Shown here: one piece after another, positions 27,401 to 59,420 of the stretch
How positions within the stretch are numbered: position 1 is the stretch's first letter
Layout: every line of letters starts with the position of its first letter
DNA from: Blasia pusilla
Lineage: Eukaryota
DNA length: 64,000 nt
NCBI GenBank assembly: GCA_050084515.1
Contig: CM114271.1
Coordinates: forward strand, 7,998,001 to 8,062,000
Direction: 5' to 3'
Program-made: the position numbers and the translations under genes
Notes under the pieces: model-generated
The model's database searches: none
The model's input: the letters and a program-made list of their open reading frames with translations, nothing else
What the model was told of the DNA's origin: nothing

Positions 27401-28790
27401 ATCATCCATGTCTATGGCTACAACTTTGGACCCTCCTACAACCCTTTGGAGTCCAAAGGGTTGCAATTCCATCTTATCATCAATCTCCATGGCTAAAACT
27501 TGGACTTTTCCGCAAGTTGTCGGAGTCCAAAGGGTTGCAAAATCCCCTGGCATCCAACTTTCTGGCATAAGGGTGGACCCTTATGCAACCCGTTGGAGTC
27601 CAACGGGTTCCCTTTGAATCTATCCACACTAACCAAGAATCCTTCACAAGTATACACTACAACCCGTCGCACTCCAACGACTTGCATTTTTTCCAATGAA
27701 CTAGACTTGGAATTCATATATTTGCAACATGTATGACTCAACGGGTTACCACTTTTTGTCTCCCCTACTTCAAGACATTGTTTCTTTTGGACTTAAGAGC
27801 AACCTGTCGGACTCAACGGGTTCCCACTTTTGTCTCCCCTACTTCCAGACATTGTTTCTTTTGGACTTAAGAGCAACCCGTTGGAATTGGATGGGTTGGA
27901 TGCACAAGCAAAATCATTTTTGCGTGAGGATGGCTTCCCTCACGCAAAAATGCGCCTCCAATGAATTTTGGCGCTCCTCTAAAATTTGGAATTTGGCCAT
28001 GAATGTATGGTTCCCATCCCAATTGTAGAAGTACAAGTTATGCATCCACTTGTACTATGTTCGTGCCATCCCTTTCCTGAACTCCACATCCCTCATTCTC
28101 CAAAACACATCCAAGTTCTCCATATCTTCTTTAGTGACCAGGGACAACATTCTATGTTCATTACAAGGCTGAACATACAAGGGAGGGAAGTTATCCACGT
28201 TTGAAGGTGTTGCAACCGACTTCTTCAACTTGGCAATGCCTTCGTCCGACTGAATTTCTTGAATGTATTCCATAGTTTGAAGTTAGCACAGATGAATCCC
28301 TGGTCCTTCGGGCCATCCATCACCGCCATGTGTTTTACAACCTACGAGAATTTCAACAATGTCAATTAGTTGCAATTTTCTTCAAAGCACGGCTTTTAAA
28401 TGCTCTGTAACAATTTTCAAAGATTGCTTACCCTCTTGAAGATTGGGTCGTTGTCGAGGCCGGCGAGTTTCTCTAGAGCATGAGGAGGCAACTCTAGTGG
28501 ATATTCATCATCGCATAAGAGGTCAATTTCTTCCACTGGACTAAAGGAAGAAGACGTTTTTCCTCTTCCTTTGGGGATGTCCACCATCTCCACACTTTTG
28601 ATCCTCTTCACCTCCTCATTGCTCTTCGAAATATTTTCATTGTTATTTTCATTCATAGTACCGCTTGACTTCCAAGAGGAGACATCCTCCATTTCAACGC
28701 TATCTGTGGTACGTGCGGGGATATCTTCATCCATGACGACAACCTTCTCCTCCCTCACTTTCGCCAATTGAGCTCTCCTGGTGGTGGCAT
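24404..28790 (-). pseudogene. Amino-methyltransferase-like cargo gene, copy 1 (motif IV region deleted at ~25790)
   Basis: GGREKSPTLIQTLMELCSRRGDLVLDLVGLLRISIRAAYQSG (24732-25184); upstream exons homologous to 43.8-46.7 kb. Confidence 0.75.
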
Positions 28791-29211
28791 TGTGACGTCA
28801 AGAGGTCATTACAAGTCGTCGGATTTTGAGAGCGAATGACCCATTGCATACTCTTCCCAAAAAATGTGGTTATGCTGCAACCAGTGGGAATCAAACGGGT
28901 TGCAACCTGTCGGATTTCGACGGGTGCATTGACCTCGTGAATGGTCCAACCCAGGCAAGCTAGACTCTGTCATAAAAAATCAACATGTCAAAATCCAACG
29001 GGTTGCATTTTAGGAATATTCCTCTTCTCTTGGTCAATTAGCTATCGATAGTAAAACCTAACAACCAATTGCAGGTTAGATAAATTTTGTGAGAATATAA
29101 ACGGTCACTATTTACTATAAATTCAACATTCTCATTCTTATTCTTGCCCTGTTAGAATCATTGTTGTAGTCATCTGCAAATGGAAAATTATGTTTAGCTT
29201 TCATGTGGCAG

Positions 29212-32200: not shown

Positions 32201-33382
32201 ACTTTCTTGAATAAGAATTGTAGAAGGGTTGGGCGACCACTACAATTTTGATCGTCCTTGTGAAACGATCAAAATTTTGTCAACCCGAGAAGCCTGGTAG
32301 TGGTCGCCCAACCCTTCTACAGTTCTTATTCAAGAAAGTCCTGCATACTCGCCTTATTCCATCCGATCCTGCCCTCCAAGTGGATCCACGGTGTTTCGAG
32401 AAATATGCCACCTCTTAAGGTTGCAATCCACCTCAATGACCAGAATGCCATGTTTTTAACATCCCCCAAGACTGGATGTTGGGAAGTCCCAGCAACAGAA
32501 GAATTATGAAATAAGACATTCACTGATTTTGTAGAAGTTACTTTAACTCGAATTCGGGAGCTATATGGTGTCTGCGAAGACCTAGGTGGGATTATTTCAT
32601 CATACACATCAATCACCGGGTTCGTTCCTTGATGTTGACGCTTGATTTGCTTGAAGTCAAGGTGTTTATCTAGTCTCAAGGAGTCTCGCTTAAATTGCTC
32701 TACCACCATCTCTATGGTACGTCTTGAAACACGCCCATGAATGTCCCCACCAATGAAGACATCTTTCTTGAGAAGAGTTCCGGCTACGAACCACTACAAA
32801 AATGGGCCAAATATCCCCATAATTTGGCCCATTGTTGTAGGGACCATTTGCATACTAGAGGAAGTGGACAATCTTCCAAGTGGAGGGTTCAAACTCATAG
32901 ACGGAGGGAGTTTGGAACATGTTTGCATTATAGAGACATCCTAAACCCTTTGGATCCAATCTAAGATTGATGTCAACTTGTATCCGGAGAAGGTGGATGA
33001 TCTCAATCCATTATTTTTGTTCGAGTCAAGAAATGGGATGAAGAGAAAGAGAATGTGTGGGCCAACGATGGAGAGAGCAAAGCGAATTGCATCAACTTAG
33101 GAGGCCAACATGGAAATCATTGCCACAAATGACGTTCATAGTGGGAATGGAATAGGAAGGATGTATTGTGAATGCAAGTGTTTCTAGGATGTATGTTGTA
33201 CATATTTTTTGCTTTCCCATATGTTCTTGTGATAACTTTGTCTAAAGAGAGACAAGTGGGAAAAGTCATTTCCCTTGTAAGCACGTGAACTGTGTTTTGC
33301 TTGTAGCTTTAAGAGAGTCAAAGCTAGGAGTAGGAATCCACCAACCAAAGAAGTTCAAAGTATCCTAAACAAGCCACTTTGA
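29212..33382 (+). pseudogene. MULE-type DDE transposase with SWIM finger, copy 1
   Basis: YGFMAENA, R*DGFHW, WLNWWTIRMREWG; donor CAG|GTGAG at 30909; CSCDNF...FPCKH SWIM at ~33220-33285; many stops; internal inverted duplication. Confidence 0.8.
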
Positions 33383-33539
33383 GGATGCAACATTAGGTTT
33401 GACAGTAGTTTGGAAATGCCAAACTATTCAGTGCAATATGGAACTTTCATCAATGTGCTTAAATGAATTTTTTTTCAGACCTTGAATGGAAAAAGGGATT
33501 TGTTCCACATTTGTGCTTCAATGATTTTTCCAATTTTAT

Positions 33540-34747
33540 AACTATGTGTTGAGAAATGACTGGATGGAGGATTGTATATAAGAAAGTTCTTTATGAGTAG
33601 TGAGGACTTTAAGGATTCGTGGGAAGGTCCTTGGAGAGGGCAGTGAGATCAAAAAATCAAGGAATTGCATTGGAGGAGTAGAAAATGGAGAAGCGGAGTA
33701 GAAGAGAAAAGAATGAAGACCTTTTTTGTCTTTTTAAGGAAGACTAGCAAAGACTACAAAGCATAGAACATCCAAGTACTTTATAACAAAATAAGAAGAA
33801 GAAGGTGATGAAGTACTTTGTGGAGAAGTACAGCACACTTGTACAAAAGACAACGAGCGAAGCATTTCATAGTCAAGGAAGTAACGAGGACTAAAAGGAC
33901 TTCGCAACCAAAATATTTTTTTTAATGATTTCAAGAGGCGCGCCATTAGAGTAGTTAGGCTTGGAAGAGACGTATAATTTCAAGACAGATAGAAAGGTAT
34001 GACAATTAGAGCCACAAAATTTGTGGGGATCATAGGTAAAGTAAAGAGGAACTTAGATTAAAGTAGTTAAAGAGATTTCAACAGATTCCTACCTATCAAG
34101 AAGCATTTCAGATCTCAAGAACTACTACCATTCGAGATAGTATTTAAACACTACCAGAGTAGTTCGTGTCATCATTCTTTTAAGACGTCACTGTGTTGTA
34201 GGAATAGTCCGAGAAAGAGAGAGTACCCTCATGAGGTTGTAACTACACTGAAGCTTTCTTGTCTTTGATGGGGTAATGGAACCTCTTCTCTTCAGTTTGA
34301 TGTGCGATGTTTATGCATAATTTGATTGGGTGTGCAGAGTGAGGAGAGGCTTTTGATGGAACTCATTCAAGAAAGAATAGTTAGTACGATAGATGTATGA
34401 AACATGTTTGACAGAGAGTAACTTGGCATGACAGATTCAGTTTTGATAGTAGGATGAGCCATCCAACTACTAAGTTCTCTAAGAGGTTCTTTTATATTTC
34501 AGCGGGGTCCTAAACAGAGAAATCTTTCTTATTCCATTAGAGAATACATTTTGAAGGAAGCGATGGCACTTGGTACCGGGAGAAAGCTGTGATTGCTATA
34601 TTTGTCCTAACGTCAAGCACATCTTCATATTTTACTTGTGTTATTAACCATTTAACTCTCTTTTCAAATAACTGTAATCTTCTTGGGGAACAAACTGCAT
34701 AGTATTTATTGAAAGATCATTTTTTTAACATTCCTTTGTACATTACA
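33540..34747. mobile_element. Truncated LTR, family Y
   Basis: Colinear with ~52010-53219, same end TGTACATTACA. Confidence 0.75.
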
Positions 34748-37700
34748 CAAATTTGGAACGCAACTGGAATTTGGGGTTTTGACTCTATTTTGGACCATAA
34801 CGTTAAGTTCCAAGATGAATTTGGGAAAATTAAGGTGCTTTGGAAACCTTATGCAAATCCAGTTCCACCGCACCAAAGATCTTAGCAAACGAATCAGCAA
34901 AAGCTGAGATATATGCCGAAAAAAACTCTATGAGGAATTTGGTTGAGGGCCAAAATGAGGGGCTCGACTGTCTTTCACCAAAATTAGGGGGAGGGAGGAG
35001 ATTCTTAGAAGTACCAGTCAAGGGGAGTATCTCCAAGAATTCTAGGGACCCAAACCCCACTTTGGGCGCCAAAAGGCGGCTCAAGGGCACGGGATGGAAC
35101 GGGAGTTTGGCATTGGGACTCAAAACCCAAACTTGATCCAAGGGAATGGATTTCGAAAGCCACACTTGGATTCCAACCCGCAACTCATTTTAGTGAGTCT
35201 TGATTGGGGACTCATTGGAGGTCCATTTGGAAAGTTGGGACCGCCAAGCGTGCAAACGGCGTTTGAGGTTCCTAAACCGATCAGAGCGTCTGTCCCAAGT
35301 CTTGAGAGACTTGCCTATGTTGTAAAGTGAGAAACTAGGAAGGTTGAGCTGGATGAGAGGCCGAGTTGAGAACTCGGAGAGTTGGAGTGTTGATTGATCT
35401 AGACCCGACTAATATGAGTGTCTGTTTGGATGCGGATCAACATTGAGAGCGTGTCCTACTGAACGCACGCTTCCGCAACACTAAAGATTTACATTCAAGG
35501 AGAGTAGGCGCATGACAAGTGGTATTAGAGCTTATCCCTGGTGAGCGTGAACTTGGGGTCGTGGGAGATCTAGACGTTTGAGAAAAACTCAATGTAGCAG
35601 GGAGACCTCTAGGCTTGGGGAGGAACACAAGAGACAAGGAGGAGATTTGAGAAGGTGAGGACTCGAAAATGGCGATCAAGGGCGAAGAACCAAGGAAGTC
35701 GCGAGTAAAAAAAAATCCAAGAGACAAACCAATGATTGATCGCGAGCCAAAGGAGGAGACAGCAACTCCCAAAGCGCCGAGCCCAAGACATAAGGATGTC
35801 CCAACCGCAAATCTTTCTGCAGGGCCTTCGGCTCCAAACTCAAGTGACCCGGCCTTCTATGTCCAAATGATGGACTTGATGACTAAGTAGATGACCCAAC
35901 AGAGCAAGAGCATCATTTAGCTCGAGTAGGAGAGAGCTTCTACCTCCGCCAAGAAGGTTTGTAAAAAAAAAATCCGACGCGATTCACTAGAATGGGGAGA
36001 TCTCGAAAAGTGAACGAGTTCTTGATCGACGGAGTCGGCGCAAATGTAGAGGAGTAGGATAAGGTGAGTATAGTTGTCACGTTCCTAAAGGATCAACCAC
36101 TTTAGTGTTGGATCGCTCATTGCAAAGAACATGTAGGCCTTGGAATAGCTTTGAGTTGGGAAGAGTTCAAGGTGTTGATTGGCAACTGATTCACTCCGGT
36201 GTCACAAGAGTTTTGCAATGGCAGGGAGTTTGTACGTTTACGGAAAAGTGGGTCCCTTAGCGATTATGCATGAGAGTTTAGTGAAAGAATGAACTTGATC
36301 CCAAAAATTACAGAGTTTGCAAAGAAGGTGATTTTCTTAAGTGGACTAAAGTCGAGCACTGAAGAGGTCCTCTTCCGGATGCTAGAGATATCAAAGACGT
36401 GTGCAGAAACTTTGAAGTTGGCCGAGGGGATAGGGATGATGAGGTCCAAGTCCAGAAACCCTTAGAGCCTAATTTTTTTTTGAAGTTACTGAAAAGTAAG
36501 GGGGCATCCAAGAGGGTTTGGAGTGGGGATGAGCGCAACCACGGAGGGTCTCTTACCCCTATAGCAAAACAAGTGTAACTCAACCCAAATCCAAAAGGGG
36601 CGCCTTACCCAAAGCCAGTGAACGCAAAAGTGATTTGCTACAATTGTGGTGAATGCGAGCATATGGGTAAGGAATATTTGAAGCCCAAGGTTAGTAAACC
36701 GAGTATGATTGCGTATTTTCTGCTTAGCACTTATCGGCGAGAGGTCTAGAGACATCTCTCCAAGTCACCAAGAGGACGCCCAATTTGGTGTACCTAAGAT
36801 CCAAGATCGTTGATCGCCATGTAATGTTGCTCGTTGATATAGGTGCTTTGCACCCCTTCTTGAGCCCGAGAATTGTGAAGGCGTTGGGGTTATCGACCAT
36901 TGAGGCAGAAAAACCCATTAAGTTGTGTTTCATAGGAGGCAAGTGTCACCAGACCTCAAAGTTGGTTCAAGGGCTTGTTGTGGGATGCGGAGTATTTGAG
37001 TTGAAGGAGAACTTCACGGTATGCGACATGCACAAAATTGATGGAGTCTTGGGGAACACGTTCTTGGATGCATATGAGGTGGAACTGAGGGGAAGATCTT
37101 TGAGGTTGAACAACTTGGTAAAAGGCAAACGGTAGCAAGTGAGGTTGGTTGGTGAGGTTCCTATGGAGACGGAGTTGGTAAATGCCATTACAAGGACAAG
37201 TTTGACTGAGCTAGAGGATGGGTTTCTCTGCTTGATAAGACAAGTTGAGGACGATGTAAGGGCAAGATGTAGAGATTAGGACTTAGCTTCAAGGGCAATC
37301 CCTGAAACACTCAAGAGAGTTGTGAAGGAATTTGGTGATGTCTTGACGAAAGAACTTATGACTGAGTTTCCAAAAAATAGGACGGTTGATCATAAGATAT
37401 AGGTGAAACTGGGGTCTCAACCACCTTCAAAGGCACCATACATGTGAAATCAAGAGGAACTTGTAGAGTTGAAGAAACAATTAGGTGAACTCCTAGGGAG
37501 GGATTACATCCAAACTAGCAAGTCACCTTATGGAATGCTCGTACTCTTTGTGAAGAAGAAAGATGGAAAGTTGAGACTCTGTGTTGATTAGGGGAGGGGT
37601 AAGAGGAGAGGAGAGAGGAGAGAGGAGAGAGGAAGAGAGGAAGAGAGGAAACTACCTTCAACCCAAAGAGATACTATTTTTTGAAGAGAGTTTCCTATGA

Positions 37701-38020
37701 TTTGAAGAGAGTTTCCGTTGGGTTGAAGAGAGGAAACTTTTTGTGTGATTTTTTTTGCACTTTTGTTCTCACTGCTTAGGCACTCCCACACTTTTTTTTT
37801 CCTCTTCCACATTTTGGCAACCCGTCAGAATCCCACCAGTTGCAATTTGCACAAATTTTAAAAAATTTAAAATTCATTGGAATCATAAATGTGGAACAAA
37901 TCACTTTTTCCATCCAAGGTCTGGAAAAAATCTATCATTTGCCCTGGGCTTAAGAGAGTTCAAGCTCAAAGTGAAGGTTCTAGCAAATTAAAATAAAATC
38001 TAAGACCTCATTTTGCATCC

Positions 38021-41000
38021 TCAAAGTGGTTTGTTTAAAATACTTCGCACTTCTTTGAGGGACGGAATTATTTGGTGGATTCCTACTCCTACCTCCGACT
38101 CTCTTGAAACTACAAGCAATACATAGTGCTTCCAAGGGAAATACCTTTTCCCACTTGTCTCTCTTTGGACATAGTCATGATAGGAACATGTGAGAAAGCA
38201 ACAGATGTGCACCACATACACCCCTGTGACACTTGAATTTACAATGTTATTCGTGACCCAATACATCCTTCTTATTCCATTGCCACTCTGGACATCTTTT
38301 GTGGCGATGATTTCCATGTTTGCCTCCCGAGCTGATGTGATTCGCTTTGCTCTCTCCACCGTTGGCCTACACATTCTGTTTCTCTTCACCCCATTTCTAG
38401 ACTCCAACAAAAATAGTGGATTGAGATCATTTAGCTTCTTCGGGTACATGTTGACATCAATCTTGGGTTAAATACAAAATGCAAACCTCTCTGTAATGCG
38501 AACATGCTCCGAACTTCCTCCGTCTACGAGTCTGAAACCAACACTTGTAAGATTATCCACTTCGTCCTGTGTGCAATTCGTACCTGCGGAAATGGGCCAA
38601 ATCATGGGGGTATTCCCTAGAGCTCCAATGGCAGCCGGATAACACTTTCAAAAAGCACAGAATTCATTTGGGTAGAAGAAGTACTTCAATTGATCCCCGG
38701 TCCTCATGAGTCCCCAAAATCCAGGCCGTGGTCGTCTAGTCCTTGTACAGTTCTTATTTAGGAAAGTGCCGCATGCTCTCTTAATGCCATCAGATCTTGC
38801 CCTGCAAGTGGGTCCACATCCAGGGTTGCTCTGAGATATATGCCATCTTTTGAGGTTGCAATCCACCTCAATGACCGGAATCCCATACTGTTGAACCACC
38901 CCAGCGACCGGATGTTGCGAACTTCCAGCAACGGAGGGCTTTTGAAATAAAACATTCACGGATTTGGGAGCAATCCGGGGTCTCCGGCATAATTTCTTCA
39001 TCCACATCAATCACCGGGCTTGGTCCTTGATGCTGCCTCTTCACTTGCCTGAAGTCAAGATACTTATCTGGTCTCCACGAGTCTCGCTCGGACTGCTCTA
39101 CCACCATCTGTATGGGACGTCTTGAAACACGCCCAAAAATGTCCCCACCAATGTGGACATCTTGCTCCAGGGGGGTTCCTGCTATGCACCGATTGAGGGC
39201 TTCCACATAGAGTTTTTCATCATCAGATCTCACAGCCGCCCTGACATAGAGCTCGTAAATCAAAGGCCCCCTTCCTTTTGATATGCCTTTTGTGAGGAAG
39301 ATATTGGATGTTGCAGATTGTAGCGTTGCTCTTGCATGGTCTTGTTGGCATGCCTCCACAAGTGAAATTCTTTGGCATGCTTGTAGCAACCTCTAGGAGG
39401 AATGAAAAATTTTTGCTCCACTTGTGTTGGGGCAGAGGGCATTTTCATGAAAGTTCAATCCCTACAACGACGGCAATGTGAGAAGGGAACAAAAATAGCA
39501 CTATGAGCAAAGAAAAAAGCTACATGTCGGATCCAGACAAGTTGCAAGTCAAAGGCATCCCATGAATGACTCTATGACCCGTCGGATTCAGACGAGTTGC
39601 AAGTAACTTTGGCCACTCCGGGCCGGAAGATCCAAGTGCAAGTCATCGAAATCCAACAGGTCGCACATGGATTTTCTAGCCTCCGACTTGAAATGGGTTG
39701 CAAGTCGGAGACATCCCTGGAATGTCCCAGTAAGCTTTTACTGCAACCTAAGACCTAGGAACCTGCTACTGCAACCCGTCAAAATCGGACGGGTTGTGAG
39801 AAGCAGGCCGGTCCGGTCTCGAAAATCCTTGTGCAACCTGTCGGATTCCGTTGGCTTGCAAGAAGTATCCACACACGAAGCTTTGAAACTATTGGAATTC
39901 GACGGGTTCCAGTTAACTTGAATTGATGCAGCGTGTTTGGATGCGACTTGGAGACAACCACAACCTGTTAGAATGCAAGGAGTTGCATACATACGCAGAC
40001 ACGTTGCAGACACACGCAAGTTGTCGCAATCCGACGGGTTGCAGACGGAGTTAACTCGCAGCCTTGCAGCTTGCAACCCATCCGGGTCGAACCATTTGCA
40101 GGCCTTGTATACATGCAACTTGCAACCCGTCGGGATTCGACATGTTGCACACTCATGCAACCAATCGGGTTCCGACAGATTGCACAAACATTCCTCGTGC
40201 ATGATGTCGCGCTCCGACGGGTAACACAAATATTCTTGATGCAACCTGTTGGTTTCCAACTAGTTGCACACTTAGGAAACCCGTCGCATCCGACGGGTTG
40301 CTTGGTTTCTTCGGTTTGAAATCCCTATAATGCCCACGCTTCTCAACTTGAGCTGCAACTTTTCAAAAAATTCTCAGCATGAGCTAGATTGGACGAAATA
40401 CTGAACTCACCTGCCGCATGAAGTTTCCCCATTGTCTCATTCGTACAGTCCACCAACTGAGCCAAGAGCAAAACTCTTTGTACTTCCCCTCAATCGTATG
40501 CTTCTTCCACCACCCATGTAGTTCTTCTTGGCACTCCATGGCCTGTTTCAAGGTTTTGTTGTCCTTGCAACGTTGGAGTAGAGTGACATGCTTTGTCCTC
40601 TTATTCTCCTTGATGCAGGATTTGGTGTACCGGGTCAAAGACTTTTGCCAATGGAAAGCATCCGACCTTTCCCTCTCTAGTTGAACCTGTCCACTCGAAA
40701 ACACTTCCTTGATAGCAATCCACCCAGGTTGTGCATTGTCCGCCATGAATCCATAAATTTCCGAAGGTGGCCTTTTGTTTTCCTTCACCACCTCCAATAA
40801 GAGTAACCAACACATCTTCAAACTGCCAACGTCTTCTGCTTTAACTTCATAGAAAAATATAGTTTTGAGTCCCTTCTCCACATGGTCATAAACGTGAGTA
40901 CCCATGGTCAACCATCCATTCAGCACTCTGTAGCAAATATCAAAGCTTGCCCAGCTGCCGTAAAGATCTTCCCCTTCTCTCATTCGATCTATAAGATCGA

Positions 41001-42375
41001 GGCCACTCGACGGCCCTGTCGTTGACATTTTGAAGACATAAGCCCTGGATCCTTTGCCTCCATAGCCCATGAACTGCCATCTGTGAATAAATGGAAATCT
41101 AGAGTTGGCCTAGATTTTGGCAATGGCATCCATTTTGGTCGTCTTTCCATCTAGTACCCGTATTTGACGCATCAAATTCCGGAAGCATTCAGGATCAGCG
41201 AGAAATGCGAGATTTTCCCATAGTTGTTTCTCCTCAGTATCCGTGATCTCACCCTGCCCAGGGATTCCAAGCAATTGTTCACAAATTTGTGATGTTGTTG
41301 TTAACTTGATCACACCGGGCTTTGATCCCAGAGAGTTTCTATATACTATGGCCACTTTCTTTGCCACATCCTTCTCGATGTGTCTTTGAATTGCACCGAT
41401 AATAAGATGAATGTCGGAGCCAACATGAACTGCCAGCCTTGTGTACTCGGACGTAGAACTAAAGTCGTGCATAATGAAAAATATGTGTGCAGGACACACT
41501 CCAACGCAGAAAGGGGATGTCTGACAATGAGAACATCGATGACCTCTCGGCGGTATGGTCGCACCGACCTCATATGGAGTTTGTGCATTCTTAGGGGGGA
41601 ATTGCAACGTATTGACTTGCCCATTGCGCTCTAGATACGAGCATGTTGGACTTCTACGCTCCAGGGCTCCAACGCATTGGCGGCGAGAAACAATCCAAGG
41701 ACCATCTGGAATTGAAGCCTGCACCATCGATGACAATGAGACTTTCTTTTCATACCCCTCAAGCGTCCTCCATCTTTCTTTTAAGCAGGACCAGCAAGTG
41801 GAGGCAACTCAAAAATGCAATTACCATCGTACGTGGGCGGAAACTTGTCCACAAGAATGTGCTTGAGCATTTTAAAGGGCAGAGAAGACAACAAACTATT
41901 TCCTGATACTCGCAAGAGGAATGAGTAGGGAGACAGAGGACCCGGTTGGTGTCCGACAGTTCCATTGAGGTTGACGACATCCGTAATATCTTCATGAAGT
42001 ACAACATTATTACAAATGTGTGAAGTTGGAGTCGATGCCGGATCTATTGAGCTTGGAGTGGCAAATGTAGAGCTCGGTGCACTAGGAAATTCCACACCGT
42101 CTACTTGGGAAACAGAGGAATTCAGAGGCAAGCCATAAACTCTGTATTGACCATTTTTTAGAGGTAGGAGATTCCATACTTTACGGTCTGCTATCACTGG
42201 TTGGACTATCTCACCTACAACATCCTCCATACCGTCCACCCTAACATCCTTGGAAACAAAGATTATTCCAATTTAGAGAAGAAATTGCACTGAGAGGAAA
42301 ATTTCATCACCTGGTATGAAAGATTCACGAGTTTGCGGTCGAACTATTTCTGATTGAGGAAGGGCCGCTAGATGA
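38021..42375 (-). pseudogene. MULE-type transposase: Cys/His-rich N-terminal domain, DDE core, SWIM finger; one ~950-bp intron
   Basis: CVGALE..SPTC...RCSHCQTSPFCVGVCP...AVHVGSD.H; SFDICYRV (D1), GFMADNA (D2), RSDAFHW ((C/D)xxH); donor at 40410; TQVE candidate E near 39420; TCSYHD...FPWKH (decayed CxC..CxH SWIM). A few stops and frameshifts. Confidence 0.85.
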
Positions 42376-42929
42376 CTGCCACAAGTGAGTTTCACATAAT
42401 TATCCATTCCTAGATGATTCCAACGGGTGGAGAATCAAAATAAGAATAAGAATAAGAATGAGAATGGGAATGTTTAATTTATAGTGAATAGTGACCGTTA
42501 TTCTCCTAATAGAATTCAACTGACAAGATGTTGTTTGGTAGATGAGATTTTCTGACGCAATGGATTCAATCCTGTTGCAACCTGTCGGAGTCCGACGAGT
42601 TGCAAAATTTGGGACTCAGACATGTGGGTTGCAAAGCCACAAAGTACCAGCTTCTGTAAGGGTCCGAGTGCAACTTGCAACCTGTCGGAGTCCCTTGGGT
42701 TGGTACCCCCTGCCTGTCTGACCTTTGTGATTGGAGTCGGGATTTGCTAACATTGAGACACGAGACATCGCATGGATTTGCAACGGCAACCCATTAGGGA
42801 CTGCGAAAGGCACCTAACCTCGCTTTTCCTTTTGCATCTCGCATCGATTTCTCTTGTCTAATGAACCGTGCAAATTATGAGTGCAGTTTTTCCGTATGGT
42901 GGGAAGTGTCCAACCCAGGGTAGACCTTA

Positions 42930-43440
42930 TAACTCGTCGGAGGGCAACGGATTGCCTCGGGATTATGCTTTGTCGCATTGTTACCCAAGGACAAGGAAAG
43001 CGTGCAACCCGTCGATCTCCGAGGGTTTGCCCGGGTACCTCACCTTGTTATCTCAAGATGAGGGAAGCGCGCAACCGATCGGTCCCCGACAGGTTGCGCG
43101 GGTACCTCGCCGTGTTATCCCAAGACAAGGGAAGCGTGCAACCCGCTGGTTTCCAACGGGTTGCACTTGTACCTCGCCTTGTTACCCCAAGACGGGGGAA
43201 GCGTGCAACCCGTCGGTCTCTGACTGGTTGCGCAGGTTCCTCGCCTTGTTACCCCAAGATGGGGGAAGCGTGCAACCCATCGGTCTCCGATGGGTTGCCA
43301 AGGTATCTTGCCTTGATACTCGAGGACGAGGGATGCGTGCAACCCGTTGGTCTTGGACACGTTGCCTCGGTAATTCGCCCTGCATCCCCAAGACGAGGGA
43401 AGCCTTCAACCCATCGAAGACCGACAGGTTGCCCGGGTTC
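42930..43440. repeat. 67-bp tandem array, each unit carrying one 29-bp palindrome
   Basis: cgtgcaacc-like anchor at 43001, 43068, 43135, 43202, 43269, 43336, 43403. Confidence 0.9.
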
Positions 43441-43803
43441 CCACGTGCAAAGTTCCATAACGGCCAACACGTCGCCGTTAGTACGACCCAACGACCCAAC
43501 GGCCAGTTCAACGGCTTGAAAAGTATAAAAGTCTGAGGTTTCGATCATTTCAATTTTTCATTTCACGATTTCATGTGCTCTTCCTCGCAGCAGCTGACGT
43601 TACCTTTCCGTTGCCAAACTCGGTTACATCACCACTTCGCTGGAAGGTTACAATGATCCAGCACCCGACGCTTTGAGGGTTTGATTTTGGCAAGCCCATC
43701 TGCTGGAGGGTCACAGCGCTTCATCATGAAACGCTTCGAGGGATCCATTGTGCACAGGAGCAGATTAGACTGTCGAGGAGGAAGAATTGACCCAACGTGC
43801 ACC

Positions 43804-46800
43804 ATGACGAGAAAGAAAACACAAGCAACCAAGGTAGAGAGCATCACTCACAAGTCCATCAGGACTCCGACGTCACCATCTCCAGGTCCTCGTTCGGCAA
43901 ATAAGATAAGGCAACAAGAAATACAGGAGTGGGAAAGGGAAGCAGATATGCACAGGCATGAGGTTCTAGCAAAACGTGTTCTGGAGGAGCTCGCTAAGCA
44001 AAACGCCGAGCTTGAGGCCTTGAAGAAAAGAGTCACGGATGAGAAACGCGAGAAAAAACGTCTTGACGCCTTTGTGAGGAGAGCAAAATTGGCGAAAGCT
44101 TGAAGGGAAAAAACAATCTCCATTGAAGAAAGTCGTGCCCAACAAAGAGTGTTGAGATGCAAGAAATGTCTCCAATGAGGTGTTGGGACACCATGAATCT
44201 AAAAGCGGTTGAGGAAACGGCCAAAGTTCAAGTGACAGACAATGAGGTCATGAGGACAGCAAGTGTGGAGATGGTGGACATATCTGAAGAAGTAGGAGAA
44301 GAGTCATTGTCGTCTTTGAGCGCTTTGGAAGAAATCGACCTTTATCGGATCGATGAGTTTCCCGTGGACTTGCCAGCTGCTGTCCGAGAGCAGTTGACGG
44401 GCCAGGACACCGACCCAATCTTTGAGTGGGTAAGAAAAAATTAAGTTATATGAAGGCTCATTATGCAATTAATTGGCAAAACACTGTATTTTATTGACTT
44501 GGTCCCCATTGTGGCAGGTTGTTAAGCAGATGGCACTGATGGAGGGCTAGAACACCCCGAGAATTCCACTCTGTCGATTGCGGAAAATGGAGTACGCCAC
44601 GAAATTCAGTCAGAGGAGGACATTGCAAAACTCAAACAGCCGATAGCAACTGCATCCTACGTCGACAGCTTCCCTCCGTTCTATGTTCAGCCTTACGATG
44701 AACATGGAACCCAAGCCCTGGTGACGGAAGAGGACTTGGAGGCGCTCGATACTTTCTGGAGGATGAGAGATCAGGAGTTCAGAAGAGCGATCGAAGGAAC
44801 CAAAATTAGTTGGATGTGGAACCTTTACTTCTTCATCTAGGATGGAAACCACATGTACATGGCGTGGACGTAGTTTGCAGAGGAGCGCCCAAATTCATTG
44901 GAGGTGCATTTTTGCGTGAAGGCAGTCGTGCTCCATCTATTTCCTCATCACATGGCAATGGTGGAAATCGCAATGCATGCGATGAATACGTAAGTCTCCT
45001 CTTCCTTAAGTTTGACTACTTCAACCCGTCGGAGTCAGACAGGTTGAATAAATGGAAAGCTTAAAGATGGGCAAGAATGATTTGAGTCTCTTGCCACCAT
45101 CCTATTTTTTACAAGGCATTGCGCAACTCGTCGGACTCTGACGGGTTGATATGTGTAGTTTTTTTCGGGAAACCTGTCTCCGAATTGAAGTCATTCTACA
45201 ACCCATCGGAGTCTGACGAGTTGTAACCAATGACTAAATCGGTTGGACCACAAAGTCACGAAAAGAGAGTGCAACCCGTCGGGCTCCGATGGGTTGCAAT
45301 TCTCTCTAAAAATTTCAAGAGTGTTGCAATAAGTGTAACACAAAGATATGTGTTGCGACCCGTCGGACTTCGACAGGTTGCAACATTTATCTGTGTGCTA
45401 CCATTTAGACCCCCATGGGTTGACAGAATTGCAACCCGTCAAAGTCTGACGGATTGTAGGGACTGGATAGCTTGCAATATTCTTACCTTTTGTTTGGATA
45501 TGCAGGATTGTATCCGAGGGGAACGTCACCCACCACTGGATCCAGGATTGCGACAGGGTGAAGAAGGTGCTTACGACGGACCCGACAGAGTACAAGGGAT
45601 TCTTGGGCAACAGTCTAGTAAATGAGATGCTGGTGAAGGAAGCTCAAATAAAAAAGAAGACTGGGCAAATACCTTCATTTCCCAAAATTCCGCCATCACA
45701 ATCCTAGGTTGGTCCAAGATCCACGCCGCCAAGAAGAGTGCTTCGTTGGAACTAGAGCGAAGTGAGAACGTGTCAGCGTCAGAACATGCAAAGTTTATTT
45801 AGGTTGTCGTATCTGCAGCTACAAAGTACAGTGCAAGCAAGATGCAAGATTACATTGCAATTCTCAACCCCAAACTTGGCCCAAAGTCTTACAAGGAGCT
45901 CAAGGCGATAATCAAGCGCCAACGGAAGAGAGACGAAGATCCACAAGGTCGGATCGGCGAGAAAGTGTCTCTAGACTACGTGCACAAATTTGCGCTGTTT
46001 GGGATATCCGAGTTTAGGCAAATTCGACTCATGAAAATCACTCCCGAGGGCACAGATGCCCTAAAGCGGGCGGCGGGCGACACACCATCCTCCGGGAGTT
46101 TCAGATCCAGTGATCTCCCATTGGCTATGGGAATGGTCCTTCTGGGACGCGTTACGCCTTCAGGGGAAGTCCATGCTCGTGGGTCTTCAAGCTGAGCTGA
46201 AGAAGATTGAGCCAATTCTAGAGGAAGCAAACCTAGAGGTTGCAGAAGATTTTGAACTATGGCTTGATGACATCAGAGATAAGCCCACGAAAAACCCATG
46301 ATTCAGGATGATGTTCAAGAATAACATCCTCCCTCAAGCACACCTCGATGAGGAAATAGATGCCAAAAAACGGGATTTTCCAAAGAAGAAGCGAGATCTT
46401 CAAGACCAGGCGGCCGAGTCATCTCGACAAAGAGCTACCCAGCGGATGGTGTACAGGTACCTCATCAATTGTAAGAATGCAGGTACCTGGCGAAAATTAC
46501 TTGCAGCCTGCAAATTGTGGGCTTCTCCGCCTGATGGAGAGGCATTCTCCATGTACGACATGGAGATGGGACAGGTCAGGTCCGACTGGGAGGTTATCAA
46601 GTGTCCAATCTGGCTGGACTTCAATGATCCAGAGGATATTACACAAAAAAATCTACGCGTGGTGTATGATGCAGTGATTGCACGTAGGGACGAAATTCCA
46701 AACTTCCTGCAACCTGACGATTTTTTCAAAGGAGATGCGGAGGAGCAAGCCCTTGAGACAGCGGAGTTGGTGGGCAAGGTTGTCATCGACAAAGACAAAT

Positions 46801-49025
46801 CCACAGCGTGTTTGAGGAAGGCGAGGGGATCAAGGAAGTCCGAGGCGGAGTCTTCCAGAAAAGAGGTTGAGTCGTCAAGGCGAGAGGCAAAATCGTCCGG
46901 GCGAGCGGGGCAAGGGGACCACACTAGGTCCTTGTCCAAGAAAACTCTTGTGGAGTCTGAGGTAACAGAGACTCCGACAAGCCGACAGCAGACTCGAGAG
47001 AAGCGGAAGCGGGAGGCACCTGGTTTGTCCGAGGGAAGAGATAAGGATGTGGAATACACTCCATCATCCTTGGGCAGGCATAGGGAAACAACCACCAAGA
47101 AAAATGTCCTTGTTCACTTGACTCATCTTGTCGACGAGCTACAGAGTTTCAGTTCTCAGGAGTCGACACCTGCCATCGACAAATTGACCATGTTGGGATG
47201 AAAACTCCTTTGAAACGGGCACGCACCCTGGATAGTTCATGGGGGTATTGAGGAGGTGGCGGTGGACCTCCTCATTGCGGATTTTCCTTCTGGGTTTTTC
47301 TTGTGGGACAAAAATCCGTCTAACACTGTCCCATAGTGGAATGTCATGCTTTCATACGACCACATCGCGGTGTTGTTTTCTTTTGCCAACGCGTATCTGA
47401 GTGATAAGGGTTCTTTCTTGGTTCTCACCAGAGGGAGTGGAGACAAGCTCTTCAACCTTCAATGCGTGAAGAGGTCACTGAAGTGGAGGACGGCGCAATC
47501 ATGGATAATTAAAAATGAGTATCCACTCCGATCGGCTACGAGTCAAGTCCGGGTAAGTCCTCTTATTAAACGAATTTAGTTGAACAAAAATTCAACCCGT
47601 TTGGCTCCGACAGGTTGCATCTGTGCATGCAACCCGTCAGATCCCAATTGCTTGTGTGTGCGATGTTGCAATTGGTCTGAAACCGACCCGTTGCAAATTC
47701 ACCAACAAGTCTCCATTGACCGCAACCCGTCGAAACCCGACGAGTTACAAGTAGCACTGCTTTTCCCCATGTTTCAGGATTGATGCAACCCGTCTGAAAG
47801 TGACGGGTTGCTCTTATATTAGGAACTTCTCAACTCTGAACAATTGTATTAAGTTGAAAGCCAACCATCGCACTCGAAACGGTGGAGGTTCCGTCCAGCA
47901 AGATGAGCAACCTGTCGGCTTCCGACGGGTTGCTCATGGCCAAAAAGAGGTCTTAGAGTTGTAAGACAACCCGTCGGACTCCGACATGTTGTTTTGTCAG
48001 GCCTATAGGCCAAGTTTGGACGAGTTGGTAATTAGTATGGACTAGTATGACGGGTTGAAAAGCAACTCGTCGGATCCCGACTGTTTGCACATTGTGTCAG
48101 TTTATGGAGAGTAGATCAGCGGTCTACTAGCTTTTTTTCTTTTTGCTGACATTATTTTTACGTGCATGTTTACACATGGACCACTCATTTTTCTACTGCT
48201 TTGTAAGGCCCGAGCACAACTTCCAAGTGTTCCAAAATCCCGGATCCAGTGGATCCATGCTCCGATGGGTAAAACTTAGATAGTCTCTACAATTCCCCCC
48301 GAGAATTTACATGCAAGACAAGACCCCCTTACTTGGAGGAAGGGAAAAGTCACCTTCCTTGATGCAAATGCTCATCGAGCTCTATTCGAGGCCGGGCCTA
48401 TCAGGAGCGAGTATCAAAAGTGCTTGGCATAGTGGCAAGAACATTCTCTACCTTGAGGGAAGGCCGGAACTTTTTGACCTTTGCAAAGAGGCAAAGGCGG
48501 ATTACGAGAGGCTAGTGGGAGTATACAAATCTCTTCCAAAGCCAACAGCTTCGGTTTCAGAACCACCATTGATAGTGACACCATCGTCACTTCCTACAAT
48601 TCCGAAAATCGGGAGGGCAAAGCCGAGAGTAATTCTGGAAGAGCTATCAGACGATGACGAGTGAGTTCAAAGATTTATTGGACCCAGCTTGACTGAAGCA
48701 TTTTGGAGTAGGGATTTAGTGCTTTCCAAGGACGGAGCACATATTCATACTGGATGGGTGTCACCTTCCAGAGCATACAAGATTTACTGCCGAGGAAGGC
48801 GTTGGGACTCAAATCACCATAACGGTCCCTTATATGGGACCGTTATGGTGTACCTAGGGGGAGGGAGGGGGGAGGGGAGGGCTCTCGAATTCCCCGACAT
48901 TTTTTATCCCCGTCTACAATCGGCTAGAGGAGCCACTTGTATCCCAAGACATTCCTTTTGTACAGGAATCTAGGAGAGTTCGGAGTAAATTTGTAGATGA
49001 CGAGGCTGAAAAGATCATAGACTAG
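43804..49025 (+). pseudogene. Multi-exon cargo gene: long unknown/coiled-coil N-terminus plus beta-class N6A/N4C DNA methyltransferase-like domain, copy 2
   Basis: TATAAAA at 43524, ATG 43804; GT-AG introns (e.g. 44430-44518, donor 47553); VDLLIADFPSG (47262-47294), AYLSDKGSFLVL, GGREKSPSLMQMLIELYSRPG[24-nt deletion]LSGASIKSAWHSGKNILYLE. Exon boundaries are approximate. Confidence 0.8.
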
Positions 49026-51843
49026 ATCAAATGTACATTTCCGAGCTTTGCTCGGATGTAATAAAGGACACAAAGTTTTGGAACTATGATGGTTTTTGTA
49101 AACTTATGCTAAATTGTTTTTTATTCTTGTCGATTGTGTTGGTCTATCTACTCGAGGATGTTTATTTTGCAACCTGTTGGATTTCGTAGGGTTGCAACTT
49201 GTCACAATATTTTAAACCCCTTGCAGGCAACTTGTTGGATTCCGACAAGTTGGCTGCTTGAGTGATCCCACTTTTTTCTTGTTAGTCCAACTTTTCAGGC
49301 ACTTTGGCAAGCTTCTTCACTTTTGCCTCATTCCCCCATTATCGTCACACCATTCTTCTCAAACACGGTATTTTAGAGACGTTTACACCATTCCGCAATT
49401 TGTTGTGGTGTGCTTGCTTGCAAGGGGTGCAACCCATCGGATTTCGACGGGTTGGAAGGGGTGCAACCTGCCGGATTCTGACATTTAGGGTCTGAATGAA
49501 GGGACATGGATGCATCAGTTCCTCTTTACTCTTGATAGCTATCAACCTTTTGGTTCAATTGTTCTCTCAGTCTCATCACATTTTCTTCTTGATGCATACA
49601 TTTCTTAGTGGCTGAGAGAATGGTGAAACCAAATTGTCAAACGCATAGCACTCCATGGTATACTTTATGCACCCATTCATGAGCCAACATCATCCAATGC
49701 TATCATGAAAGTCTTTGGCTACCATCAGTGATGAGTGATTTGTTCTCTTTTGGAAAAAACCCCTCATGGATGAGTATTGATTGGATGGGATATTTAATGC
49801 AAGAAGAGTCAACAATCCATAATGTTAACCACATCTTCAGAGAAGTTAAACCTTGAAGGGCATAGGAGTCTATTGAGACCATAGTTAGAGTCTTTATTTG
49901 AACCTTTCATTGTTATGAAATTGCTACTTCGGGTCAAATTATTTGCCGATGGTCCTCCCACATTAATACCCCTCATCCCGACTTACTGTAGAGCTGGCTT
50001 AGACAGGCAATGTGAAGAAAATTGGGCTCACATGGAGAGTGATGGAAGGATGTTTTTAGTGGTCTTATGATGTCTACTTGTTCTTGCAAGCCTGGAAAAA
50101 AAAGGTTACTTTAGGCCCGAATGTGATCCACTTACTACTCTCTTCTAAAGATTTCATGAATTTGAAAGAATTTATTTTTTTTCAAAAATGTCAAAAAGTT
50201 TTGAAGAGAGGAGGCGGATTTTGCCCTTTTTTTTAAGAGAGACTCTCCTCTCTTCCTCTCTCCTACCAGAATACCATTTTTGTTGATTATCAGGCACTGA
50301 ATAAAGTGATGGTAAGGAACAACTATCCTCTTCCGAGGATGGATGACCTCTTTGATCGATTGTCACATGCCAAGTATTTCAATAGGATTGACCAGAAGTC
50401 AGGAGATTATCACATTTGGATTGCCAAAGCGGATGTGGAGAAGATTGTTTGTAGGATGAGATATGGTATGTTCAAGTTTGTGGTAATGCCTTTCGGTCTC
50501 TGAAATGAACCTCCAACATTCACCACTTTGATGAAATCCATCTTTCATAAGGAGATGGATGAGTATGTGATCATCTACATAGATGACATATTGATCTATT
50601 GAAAGTCACTAGAGGAGCACGCTTAACATTTGAGGACGGTGTTTACAAAACTTAGGGCGAACAATCTGTATGCGAATGTGGGAAAAAGTGAGATTGGTTT
50701 GACCAAGATCAAGTTCTTGGGTCATGTGGTTAGTGCAGATGCAGTGAGTCCAGACATGAAGAAGGTAAGCACGATTGCCGAATGGGAACCGCCTTCCACC
50801 GTGAAGGGCATGAGGAGGTTCATCGGAGCAGTCCAATTTTACCAAACTTGCGTGAAGAAAATTTTGCAAATAGCAAAAGCGCTCACAGGTTGGATTGCAA
50901 AGTTTTCCAACACTATATGGACCCAAGGGATGGATAAGGCATTCAATTGAGTCAAGGAGATCCTCTCGCATGAACTAGTTTTGAAGCTTCTAGAGTTCGA
51001 CAAACCGTTCGAGATGCATATTGATGCTAGTGATTTCACGATTGCAAAAATGTTAGTGCAAGAAGGGAGACTTGTAGCATACGAGAGCAAGAGGCTTAGC
51101 AACACCAAAAGAAGATGGCGCACTCACAAGAAAGAGTTTTTTGCGGTGGTTCGTTGTTTGAGGAAGTGGCGTCACTATTTGGGACTTCACAAGACTCGAG
51201 TATGCACTTATAACATTTTGCTCAAGTATTTTGAGACCAAGGATCGCGTGACACCGAAGAAACTCTTATGGCATGATACCTTGGCGTTGATGAATGTGGA
51301 GCTAATCCACAAGCCTCGGAAAGAAAATGTCATACCAAATGCATTGAGTCGTAGGGATGAGCATATGCCATCGACAACACGAGTCTTGAGAGCAATGTTC
51401 CCAAAAGAAACAGGCCTAGAGAGAAGGATTCGTGAAGGATGCATAAGCGAGTGAGTACTTAAGGAGGTTGAAGTAGGGCGAGAAGGTGGCCAACATAAGT
51501 TTGAGGCATGGTTTGCTAAGGTTTAAGTAGAGCACGATCCAAGGCAAGCTACGGACTAAAGTGTTAGTGGAATGTCATGACGGACCTTTGGCATGACACA
51601 AAGGGGAGAAATCCACGCTTGTTGTTTTGACCAAGAAGTTCTTCTGGCCCAACATGAAAGAAGATATCGCTCAGTATGTGAAGACTTGCGTGACCTATTA
51701 GGCAAACAGAGTTTCTTATGCGAAGAAATGTATAAGGCATACTTTGTTCTTTTCCGATTCTAGAGGAACCCTTGCAGAGTGTAAGCATGGATTTCATTAC
51801 GAGTCTTCCGGAATCTGAGGGATACAAAACTATACTTGTGATA

Positions 51844-53219
51844 TGTAATACCCACTATTTTGATTTTTTTTTATTTTTAAGCTTTTGTTGCATAGAATCG
51901 AGTTCTATACAACAAAATCCGTTTATTCTATGGACGAAGCTTGAGGATTTCCAATTTGGTGAAAACTGTGTATCTGTAAAGGAACAAAGATATTTTTCCA
52001 AATATGGAGTATTATGGTGTGTTGACAATTGATTGGAGAGAAGTTCTAATGAGGGAAAAAAGGAGGTTGGAAGATCGGGGACTTGTTTTGAAGAACGAAA
52101 ATTTTTGGAAAGAGTAGATTAAGTAAAGAAATAAATGCCGCGCTCCGTAACGAAGACCTTTTGTTCTCGCGGTGAAGGCCTGTCAAGCAAGAACTGCCAA
52201 CGAAGACTGTGAAAGACTGCAAAGCTTATCAAAAGTCAAAGCGCTTCCTAACAAGATAAGAAGAAGAAGAAGAAGAGGACGAAGTACTTTGCAGCGAAGC
52301 AGTTATGCACAAGACAAAGAGCAAAGCACTTCGCTACCCCATAACAACACAAGTTGGAAACAAATTCATAGAAAAGGAAGACCTTCCAAGAATCCAAGGG
52401 CACGCTGTTAGAGTAGTTAGGCTCAAAAGAGACGTATCGTTTTAGGACATATAGGAGGGTATGATTGTTAGAGCCAGCGGATTCATAGGGATGATAGACA
52501 AAGCAAACAAAAGCGTAGATTAAGTAGTTATAGGGCTTTGAACATATATCGATAAAGAAAGAAGCGCTTCACATCTCAAGAACCTCTGAACCTTGGAGCA
52601 ATATTTAAAGAACACGAGAGTAGATAGAGGTATCATTCTCCTATGACGTTTCTATTTTGTAGGAATGGTCCAAGCGAGAGAGAGTACCCTCTTGCACTTA
52701 TAACTCTACTGAAGCCCCCTGATCTTTGATGGAATAACGGATTCGATTTTCTTCATTCTCATGTGCAGTGTCTATGCATGGTTCTATTGGGTCTGCAGAG
52801 TGAAGAGAGACTTATGGTGGACTCACTCAAGAAAGAATGGTCAGTAGGATAGATGTATGAAATGTGTTTGACAAAGAGTAACCTACCTTGATGGATTAAT
52901 TCCGATAGTAGGATGAGCCATCCATTTTCTGAGTTCTCTCTGAGGTTCTTCCGTGTTTCATTGAGGTCCCAAGCAAAGAATTCTTTCTTACTCCACTAGA
53001 GAAGATACTTCAAAGGAAGCAATTGTATTTGGTAGTGAGAGAAAGTTATGATTGTTAATCCATATTCCAAACTCAAGGACAATTTCATTGTTTATTCACG
53101 TAAGTTACCATTTGATTCTCTTTTAAAAAAAAATTGAACCTTATGGTTGCTCTTGTTGGGGAACGAGCTATATACTATTCACTCAAAAGATAAAAATTTC
53201 TATTTGATTGTACATTACA
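51844..53219. mobile_element. Solo LTR, family Y (1376 bp), inserted in the gypsy integrase
   Basis: TGTAAT...ATTACA termini, 5-bp TSD TGATA/TGATA; integrase frame resumes after it. Confidence 0.92.
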
Positions 53220-56200: not shown

Positions 56201-56348
56201 TCCAGTAGAGAAATCAAGAAAGAATCAAGAACGAGCTTGACCAAACACAAAAGCACCAAAATTGAGAAAACACTTTAGGAACCATCGGTGTTCAGAAACT
56301 ATAAGTCCTTTACTACATCCGAGGGAAACTCATAAATTTACATTTGAT

Positions 56349-59300: not shown

Positions 59301-59420
59301 TGCCCGCTCCGACGCCGAGACATTTTCCCTTTGCTCCAGTTCCAATGTGGTGCTCTTCTTGCTTGCTTGGTTCTTGGACCATGAGAGAATCGTGACCACT
59401 GCATCTTGGGAGATTAAGGT
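56349..59420 (-). pseudogene. Amino-methyltransferase-like cargo gene, copy 3 (5' part deleted; best-preserved MTase motifs)
   Basis: VDLLIADLPYG (57886-57854); GGREKSPALMQTLMKFCSRPGDLVLDLVGLLGASINGAWQSSKNILYLEGRPEIFDLC (56681-57067). Confidence 0.82.

Follow-up and report, generated by a model that had tools for sequence, protein, structure and literature searches.

A High-Copy, Probably Mutator-Like Transposon Family of Blasia pusilla with an Accessory Gene Distantly Related to Beta-Class Amino-Methyltransferases

Overview of the Element

We analysed 64,000 nt of Blasia pusilla DNA (contig CM114271.1 of assembly GCA_050084515.1, positions 7,998,001 to 8,062,000 of the forward strand), a stretch called the window hereafter, and found in it three diverged copies (A, B, and C) of a cut-and-paste DNA transposon of about 12.7 kb that is present in high copy number in this land plant. 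The element carries two genes set head-to-head, diverging from a central repeat-bearing region: a transposase gene and a long accessory gene, the product of which ends in a domain that appears to derive from beta-class amino-methyltransferases (MTases). The best explanation, which we regard as probable, is that of a high-copy family, itself a probable member of the Mutator-like elements (MULEs), with a selected accessory protein whose MTase-derived domain serves as a predicted DNA-binding module.

Self-BLAST of the window returned the three copies as colinear, with 67–80% DNA identity, A and C both being inverted relative to B. The original prediction for this region had described a fixed head-to-head layout in three copies, which self-BLAST and the frames of the open reading frames (ORFs) bear out. 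Copy B, which is complete, measures 12,691 bp.

21407..~33541, copy A, inverted relative to B (self-BLAST; far end approximate)
37590..50280, copy B, complete, 12,691 bp, colinear with A and C (bounds from the target duplication and the restored reverse transcriptase frame)
54305..64000, copy C, inverted relative to B, cut by the end of the window (self-BLAST)

Architecture and Homologues of the Accessory Gene

The accessory gene has several exons, and its MTase-like domain corresponds to the last 270 aa or so, behind about 900 aa of conserved N-terminal sequence.

43657..48664, + strand, copy B accessory gene, multi-exon, about 1,200 aa if intact (conserved frames; tblastn)
47097..47558, + strand, copy B MTase-like domain, N-terminal half (DFPSG, P.WN, L.D.G strand)
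47559..48175, + strand, copy B intron, filled with palindrome copies
48176..48664, + strand, copy B last coding exon (GGREKSP..., motif X/I/II-like), with a 24-bp deletion and a +1 frameshift near 48234
24732..25184, − strand, copy A last coding exon, open 150-aa frame (GGREKSPTLIQTLMELCSRRGDLVLDLVG...)
57596..58000, − strand, copy C MTase-like domain, N-terminal half (VDLLIADLPYG), 3 in-frame stops
56681..57195, − strand, copy C last coding exon, acceptor AG/ATGGAG, 5-nt insertion causing a frameshift near 57075

All the peptide strings on which the original prediction was built were located in the window: VDLLIADFPSG in B (47262–47294, + strand) and VDLLIADLPYG in C (57886–57854, − strand), LSDKGS in B (47397–47414), REKSP in the three copies (48341 in B, 57025 in C, and 25070 in A), and GDLVLDLVG in C and A only, as the 24-bp deletion of B removes DLVLDLVG. 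The gene had also been proposed to be spliced, and this holds: a conserved GT donor stands at 47559 in B, the acceptor AG/ATGGAG is found in C, and reads from three RNA runs bearing the same species label fit the window from 48176 onwards, exactly the predicted acceptor (14, 12, and 20 reads per run).

The three copies of the window are dead relics. In B, the large exon (46071–47552) contains four in-frame stops, to which are added the +1 frameshift, the 24-bp deletion, and the loss of the acceptor AG; C has four stops in 58120–57590 as well as its 5-nt insertion; A has lost the stretch bearing VDLLIAD, while its last exon is still open over 150 aa.

Relatives of the gene were looked for among 1.84 billion proteins by an exhaustive search (E ≤ 0.001) with the large exon of B as a query, its stops replaced by X. 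Five proteins came out, all hypothetical, from Riccia sorocarpa (two), Riccia fluitans, Adiantum capillus-veneris, and Adiantum nelumboides; the C-terminal part of the fern protein added two further A. nelumboides paralogues. A word-index protein search with the last exon of C gave no match. The Riccia models stop exactly at the end of the window exon (...RSATKQFK), so that the intron position is common to Riccia and the window gene. When the Riccia and Adiantum proteins, known here as protein records alone, were aligned to the window by tblastn, they matched copy B at 44619–44867, 46083–46772, and 47214–47558; since upstream exons match too, the whole architecture of the accessory gene is conserved, beyond its last domain.

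Relationship to Beta-Class Amino-Methyltransferases

M.PvuII and M.RsrI are beta-class amino-MTases, and the original prediction had assigned the C-terminus of the accessory protein to this class. Standard searches were of little help: neither the translated exons of the three copies nor the homologues were matched by Pfam PF01555, even at E values up to 1–10, and PDB sequence searches returned only a sub-threshold DpnA-type adenine methyltransferase (5hek, E = 1.9) at the expected place. Because neither Pfam nor the PDB sequence searches gave anything significant, we built our own profile–profile test. The reference profile was an alignment of 48 bacterial PF01555 sequences (relatives of E. 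coli YhdJ and genome matches to the Pfam model); the family alignment contained composites of the window copies, with an X at each break, and five outside proteins. This combined alignment was assembled by script, as MAFFT did not place the last-exon rows beside the first-half rows, and it was compared to the PF01555 set with hhalign.

With all the family rows, hhalign reported a probability of 93.6% (E 2.2e-7, score 56.0) over 178 colinear columns; with the window rows only, 96.8% (E 2.4e-10, score 73.0) over 207 columns; and with Riccia and Adiantum only, 48% (E 1.8e-4, score 36.2) over 194 columns. The aligned region begins at the DPPY position, takes in RvLkpgG, iiW.K, and HPtqKP..L..lI...S..GD.VLDPF.GSGTT, and ends with the G.E strand, i.e., in the permuted order of the beta class, with motif IV first, then X, I, and II. 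As controls, the reversed family alignment scored 16.3, all of 20 column shuffles stayed at or below 18.5, and profiles of bacterial MT-A70, Dam (alpha class), and IS256 gave the family scores of 11.7–18.7, the controls as a whole spanning 10–19. When PF01555 itself was compared with MT-A70 and with Dam as positive controls, the scores were 56.5 and 43.1, respectively. The domain is thus about as distant from PF01555 as MT-A70 is (56.0 versus 56.5). In the reverse direction, a hidden Markov model (HMM) of the family ranked methyltransferases at 16 of the top 20 places among 193 bacterial ORFs, 38 of which are methyltransferases.

Predicted structures gave a mixed picture. For residues 385–656 of the fern homologue P0006, all 10 structure rows of the ESM Atlas were PF01555 clusters (TM 0.58–0.64, 192–216 residues aligned), for a model of low confidence (pLDDT 0.42 over the whole protein), and 17 of 30 feature matches fell in the PF01555-bearing set (score 0.91). 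Our own AlphaFold2 model of P0006, made with an eight-row alignment, was poor (mean pLDDT 40.3); Foldseek found no match for it in the PDB at E ≤ 0.001, and this result was discarded as uninformative.

Could the likeness of the motifs be a matter of chance, in a domain unrelated to methyltransferases? The absence of any significant Pfam or PDB sequence match, the empty PDB profile search, and the uninformative AlphaFold model would fit such an explanation. It has, however, to face the gap between the hhalign scores and those of the reversed, shuffled, and unrelated-family controls, the preponderance of methyltransferases at the top of the reverse HMM ranking, and the ESM Atlas matches, and we hold it to be extremely improbable. 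That the C-terminal ~270 aa are a genuine but very distant relative of the beta-class N6/N4 amino-MTases is well supported by these profile comparisons, and the homology originally proposed stands.

Selection on the Accessory Gene

The accessory gene is present and colinear in all three copies, which differ from one another by 20–32%. Read in its true frame, it gives low dN/dS values: 0.28 for the large exon (B versus C), 0.25 for the N-terminal half of the domain, and 0.23–0.52 for the last exon, compared with 0.65–1.26 in two wrong frames taken as controls; the transposase gives 0.29–0.31 between copies. As the true-frame values are low relative to the wrong frames, much of the divergence arose with both genes under selection.

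These values bear on a rival explanation, in which the accessory gene is a captured host fragment, in the manner of Pack-MULEs, without function for the element, its MTase likeness being a relic. The pseudogene state of all three copies and a whole-genome shotgun (WGS) depth lower on the accessory gene than on the transposase would agree with it. The dN/dS pattern (0.23–0.52, like that of the transposase) rules out a one-off capture, and the passive-cargo explanation as a whole is left very improbable by the colinear presence of the gene in three copies so far apart and by a multi-exon architecture, an intron position, and full-length homologues shared with Riccia and Adiantum, with several paralogues per genome. 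Since every copy has it, since its constraint matches that of the transposase, and since liverworts and ferns have full-length relatives, the accessory gene is, on good comparative support, likely to be an old, selected component of the element. In this respect, the original prediction, which had set the gene apart from one-off Pack-MULE captures and had suggested measuring dN/dS between copies, is upheld.

A Palindrome Restricted to the Element

The non-coding parts of the copies are strewn with a 27-nt palindrome.

23585..63863, 27-nt palindrome GCAACCCGTCGGA-n-TCCGACGGGTTGC, 50 distinct sites, inside the copies, in non-coding parts
42973..43441, 67-bp tandem array in the intergenic region, one palindrome per unit (self-matches offset by 67 bp; sites at 43004, 43138, 43205, and 43272)

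Scanning both strands with up to 3 mismatches gave 86 matches, i.e., 50 distinct sites, for an expectation of 0.00 from 100 shuffles. The sites are distributed as 14 in A, 20 in B, and 16 in C, in introns, in the intergenic region, and near the ends of the element, and none was found in the ~29.5 kb of the window outside the copies. In the shared intron, the motif columns are 65–66% identical between copies versus 42–53% elsewhere, in an alignment that is biased towards the motif. The palindrome is, from this distribution, a likely candidate target of the accessory protein.

Two further observations were made on these repeats. Where B has its 67-bp array, C has an intergenic array with a period of ~99 bp (60742–61194); the copies thus differ in array structure, a kind of variation also described for the target arrays of VANC. 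Moreover, 88 WGS reads skip 39648–40074 of B (427 bp, rich in palindromes), with 3 other letters in between, and many genomic copies are without this stretch.

Binder or Enzyme?

Across the family, five residues (D405, P407, N422, D442, and G444 in the numbering of P0006) are invariant in all eight aligned sequences. At the position of motif IV, the family has D-[LFI]-P-[YSTK]-G, versus the canonical (D/N/S)PP(Y/F/W), with the tetrapeptides DLPY in C, DFPS in B, DLPT, DLPK, and DIPT in Riccia, and DFPT in Adiantum; the first proline is never present, D and the second proline are invariant, and an aromatic residue is found in only one of the seven sequences covering the motif (copy C). For motif I, the window copies have DLVGLLGAS and the fern has EMGCSTAP, where the canonical sequence is DPFxGSGTT. 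Over motifs I and II, the window has GDLVLDLVGLLGAS...NILYLE and Adiantum GLALEMGCSTAP...FSFDID, so that the acid is kept and the glycine loop partly so, in alignments that differ in detail. The H and K of HPxxKP are not retained. Because DPPY has become D-hydrophobic-P-x-G and the loop for S-adenosylmethionine (SAM) is degenerate, methyl transfer is doubtful. Such a degenerate pattern is typical of inactive methyltransferase folds, METTL14 being a pseudo-MTase with a fold under selection, a degenerate tetrapeptide, and nucleic-acid binding.

The original prediction had considered that the protein might write 6mA or 4mC on the element; we find this unsupported, given the non-canonical motif IV and the degenerate motif I. 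The corresponding rival nevertheless deserves a careful hearing: an active SAM-dependent amino-MTase would place 6mA or 4mC marks along the element, its palindromes being one possible site, and would counter 5mC silencing or time transposition. In its favour, the PF01555 homology is full-length and in beta-class order; all 8 aligned sequences keep the D and second proline of motif IV as well as the G of L.D.G; copy C has DLPYG; in the window copies, GD.VLD...G..GAS persists, as does the acid of YLE where motif II is expected; the domain has been under strong purifying selection (dN/dS 0.25); and the palindromes resemble type II recognition sites. To this can be added host N4C MTases of bacterial origin, which work in bdelloids and in Marchantia according to PMC8885841 and bioRxiv 10.1101/2021.02.12.428880. 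Against it stand the first proline, always replaced by L, F, or I, the aromatic residue replaced by S, T, or K in six of the seven covering sequences, the deviant motif I, the missing H and K of HPxxKP, and the lack of a PF01555 match. Judging from these motifs, it is rather doubtful that the domain still methylates, and we give the enzyme a minor but real share of our belief. A more specific version, in which intact members encode a working, non-canonical D-L-P-Y amino-MTase that marks its own 27-nt palindromes with 6mA or 4mC, seems to us unlikely. If true, it would provide a land-plant transposon with a self-written mark shielding it from host 5mC silencing, or competing with it, and would make the element a possible evolutionary source of bryophyte host amino-MTases.

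In the explanation that we favour, the MTase-derived domain would no longer be a canonical DNA amino-MTase. It would act as a DNA-recognition module binding the 27-nt palindromes in introns, in the intergenic region, and in subterminal parts, and this binding might in turn regulate the silencing of the element (anti-silencing) or its transposition, following a logic akin to that of VANC of VANDAL elements and of the inactive partner METTL14. The chief competitor of this binder role is a methyl-transfer activity that would be residual or altered.

Several points weigh against the binder explanation or some part of it. The invariant D and second proline, together with DLPY in C, resemble the N-L/I-P-Y motif (NLPY/NIPY) that is active in KsgA/Erm enzymes. 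Pfam PF01555 is silent, both structure models are of low confidence, and the one submitted to Foldseek matched nothing. The WGS depth of the transposase is 5–10 times that of the accessory gene. Finally, the RNA reads that fit the last exon share a 30-letter upstream consensus which is absent from the window, even with up to 3 mismatches.

The Transposase and Its Superfamily

The transposase gene was followed in the three copies through its conserved frames.

38024..42272, − strand, copy B transposase remnant (main frames 42272–40387; conserved frames 39392–38871; degenerate SWIM region 38467–38024)
61762..63455, + strand, copy C transposase frames, 259 and 289 aa, with one frameshift between them
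33222..33284, + strand, copy A SWIM-like CxCx16CxH (CSCx16CKH), with one internal stop

In B, the transposase reads FDICY, FMADNAQP, and SDAFHW, i.e., D, D, and D..H. According to a rule for MULE transposases, C/D-x-x-H follows the second catalytic D; it is present as SDAFHW in B, SDVFHW in C, and DGFHW in A. The SWIM finger of the original prediction is recognisable in A alone, where a stop interrupts it; B has a degenerate form.

No Pfam model for MULE, Transposase_mut, DBD_Tnp_Mut, or SWIM (PF10551 and PF00872 included) was reached by the transposase translations, and 26 translations of both genes and of the homologues produced no row above the threshold; the weak rows were SWIM on copy A (E = 0.28, 11.2 bits, sub-threshold) and DDE_Tnp_ISL3 (E = 0.36). 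A word-index protein search with the transposase ORF of C gave no match. With ESM features, the transposase of C had MULE clusters first (score 0.95), and its ten best Pfam-bearing matches were all within the MULE/ZSWIM1-3 RNaseH-like family or clan. The alignment with bacterial IS256 by hhalign was weak (score 26.3, E 0.018), with the second D and D..H in register. Because of the ESM features, the D/D/D..H motifs, the CxCx16CxH of copy A, and this in-register IS256 match, the transposase is probably Mutator-like, of the DDE type, with a C-terminal SWIM-like finger.

We also considered another DDE superfamily having 8-bp duplications or SWIM fingers (hAT, P, or Zisupton/KDZ-like). An 8-bp duplication, as found for copy B (see below), is what hAT and Zisupton elements typically make, and for MULEs it is the shortest usual length; long terminal inverted repeats are lacking, the Pfam models of Mutator-type transposases gave no match, and the IS256 score is modest. 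On the other hand, the best family-bearing ESM matches all point to MULE/ZSWIM1-3, the IS256 alignment, weak as it is, pairs the catalytic residues, the CxCx16CxH finger lies at the C-terminus of the transposase, and Pfam scans matched none of the hAT dimerisation, BED, THAP, or KDZ domains. Furthermore, Spectre, a MULE clade, is recorded with an 8-bp target duplication in a passage of PMC6446971. A superfamily other than MULE thus appears improbable to us. The term "Mutator-like" of the original prediction can be kept with its reservations, as the ESM features, the SWIM-like motif, D..H, and the 8-bp duplication agree with it and the silence of Pfam and the lack of long terminal inverted repeats do not.

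Insertion Site and Ends of the Element

The bounds of copy B were set by its target duplication.

37582..37589, + strand, left target-site duplication TGTTGATT
50281..50288, + strand, right target-site duplication TGTTGATT, identical 8 bp

Excising B in silico while leaving one repeat gives back an intact retrotransposon reverse transcriptase (RT) motif and reading frame; copy B is therefore a genuine insertion that duplicated 8 bp of its target. The duplication was read in this copy only and falls in the 8–11 bp range of MULEs. Of the bounds first given for the element, 37591–50280, the right end is correct and the start is displaced to 37590 by the duplication. A segmental duplication in place of transposition was considered and rejected, because the target duplication of B lies within an RT gene and WGS depth is high.

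Long terminal inverted repeats were not found in the element; its ends show GA-rich inverted matches of 16–22 nt, short and imperfect, and have a GGGG..GGTA start in common. The right terminus of B (50277–50280) starts with AAAA, where the homologous end of C (54300–54310) and the left end of B (37590–37600) have GGGG; this AAAA may result from C-to-T decay of a methylated end.

Copy Number and Expression

One WGS run, also bearing the species label of the window and with reads placed at ≥90% likeness, was used with the three RNA runs. WGS depth was about 250–900 on the DDE part of the transposase and 45–180 on the accessory gene, compared with 0.7–1.4 in the lowest bins, which makes the family a high-copy one, with more transposase-bearing relatives than accessory genes like that of B. 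As depth is lower on the accessory gene, many relatives may lack it or carry a version that is less than 90% alike.

In the three RNA runs, first mates map to the plus strand in the transposase region and to the minus strand in 48176–49338, an opposite bias that fits the two opposite gene directions. The RNA reads are without the extra base of copy B at 48234–48236. As to the upstream exon of these expressed relatives, it may belong to a diverged subfamily with another in-frame donor, or to a different gene sharing the exon.

Comparison with Known Systems

With the PF01555 beta-class MTases, the family shares the permuted order, the catalytic loop coming first, then X (..KP..L...I), I (GD.VLD..G..G), and the acid of II, as well as a similar predicted fold in the low-confidence model of the fern homologue. 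Unlike them, it lies below the Pfam threshold, has D-[LFI]-P-x-G and a degenerate motif I, and is fused behind some 900 aa in an intron-bearing gene of a eukaryotic transposon. METTL14 offers another degenerate fold that is nonetheless under selection, and differs by its family (MT-A70), to which the profile scores of 11.7–18.7 show no specific likeness.

The closest parallel in layout is provided by VANDAL elements. As PMC5735166 and PMC12730594 describe, VANC binds to short motifs that recur in non-coding parts of the very element encoding it, and lifts silencing. VANDAL/MuDR elements likewise combine a Mutator-type transposase with an element-specific accessory gene, and the motif is multiplied, partly in tandem, in non-coding DNA; here, in contrast, the accessory protein has an MTase-derived domain and the motif is a 27-nt palindrome, the likening to VANC being one of layout.

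DNA- and chromatin-modification genes are known from other mobile elements. PMC5890265 reports C5 cytosine methyltransferases carried by retrotransposons of dinoflagellates and charophytes. According to PMC12730594, DNA transposons of fungi carry TET/JBP dioxygenases, and MuDR and Harbinger elements of oomycetes carry SET genes. The C5-MTase and TET/JBP carriers resemble our family as mobile elements long keeping a gene of the DNA-modification toolkit, and differ from it since it has an amino-MTase fold of doubtful activity in another element type and host lineage.

As for host genes, the original prediction had mentioned N4C MTases in bdelloid rotifers and Marchantia, and rightly so: the bdelloid N4CMT (PMC8885841) and Marchantia MpDN4MT1a/b (bioRxiv 10.1101/2021.02.12.428880) are presented with canonical motifs and shown 4mC activity. 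They too have a PF01555-type fold in a eukaryote, in one case a liverwort; unlike these single or duplicated host genes, the gene described here is a multi-copy transposon gene with non-canonical motifs.

The original prediction named no described MULE family with such cargo. In the open-access literature, leaving Repbase Reports, subscription journals, and annotation supplements outside our scope, we found no transposon with a PF01555-type gene, and the word "methyltransferase" is absent from the main text of a survey of MULE diversity (PMC6446971). Within that literature, we thus found no previous description of an accessory gene of this type for such elements.

Transposons that bring along genes for modifying chromatin or DNA illustrate the ways in which mobile DNA counters silencing. 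A Mutator-like family with an amino-MTase-derived protein in liverworts and ferns would form a new class beside the carriers of C5-MTase, TET/JBP, and VANC, and the element-restricted palindrome provides a concrete candidate target. It opens the questions of whether plant transposons write or read 6mA or 4mC, and of how an MTase fold could turn into a DNA-binding accessory factor.

Surroundings of the Copies

The copies lie among fragments of long terminal repeat (LTR) retrotransposons, with protease-like and RT/RNase H-like frames, at 36728–37589, 50281–51454, 33932–34671, and 52395–53131; copy B sits within one RT gene, and the region is a nest of transposons. A separate repeat of ~570–750 bp, with 71–82% identity, occurs four times (12136–12720, 22485–23238, 34770–35517, and 59614–60057). 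Two of the four are inside A and C, and B has no counterpart at that place; these repeats probably stem from the nested insertion of a small element or a solo LTR. Finally, a tandem satellite with a period of ~217 bp, the units of which are 89–96% identical, extends over ~3 kb at 2748–5984 of the window.

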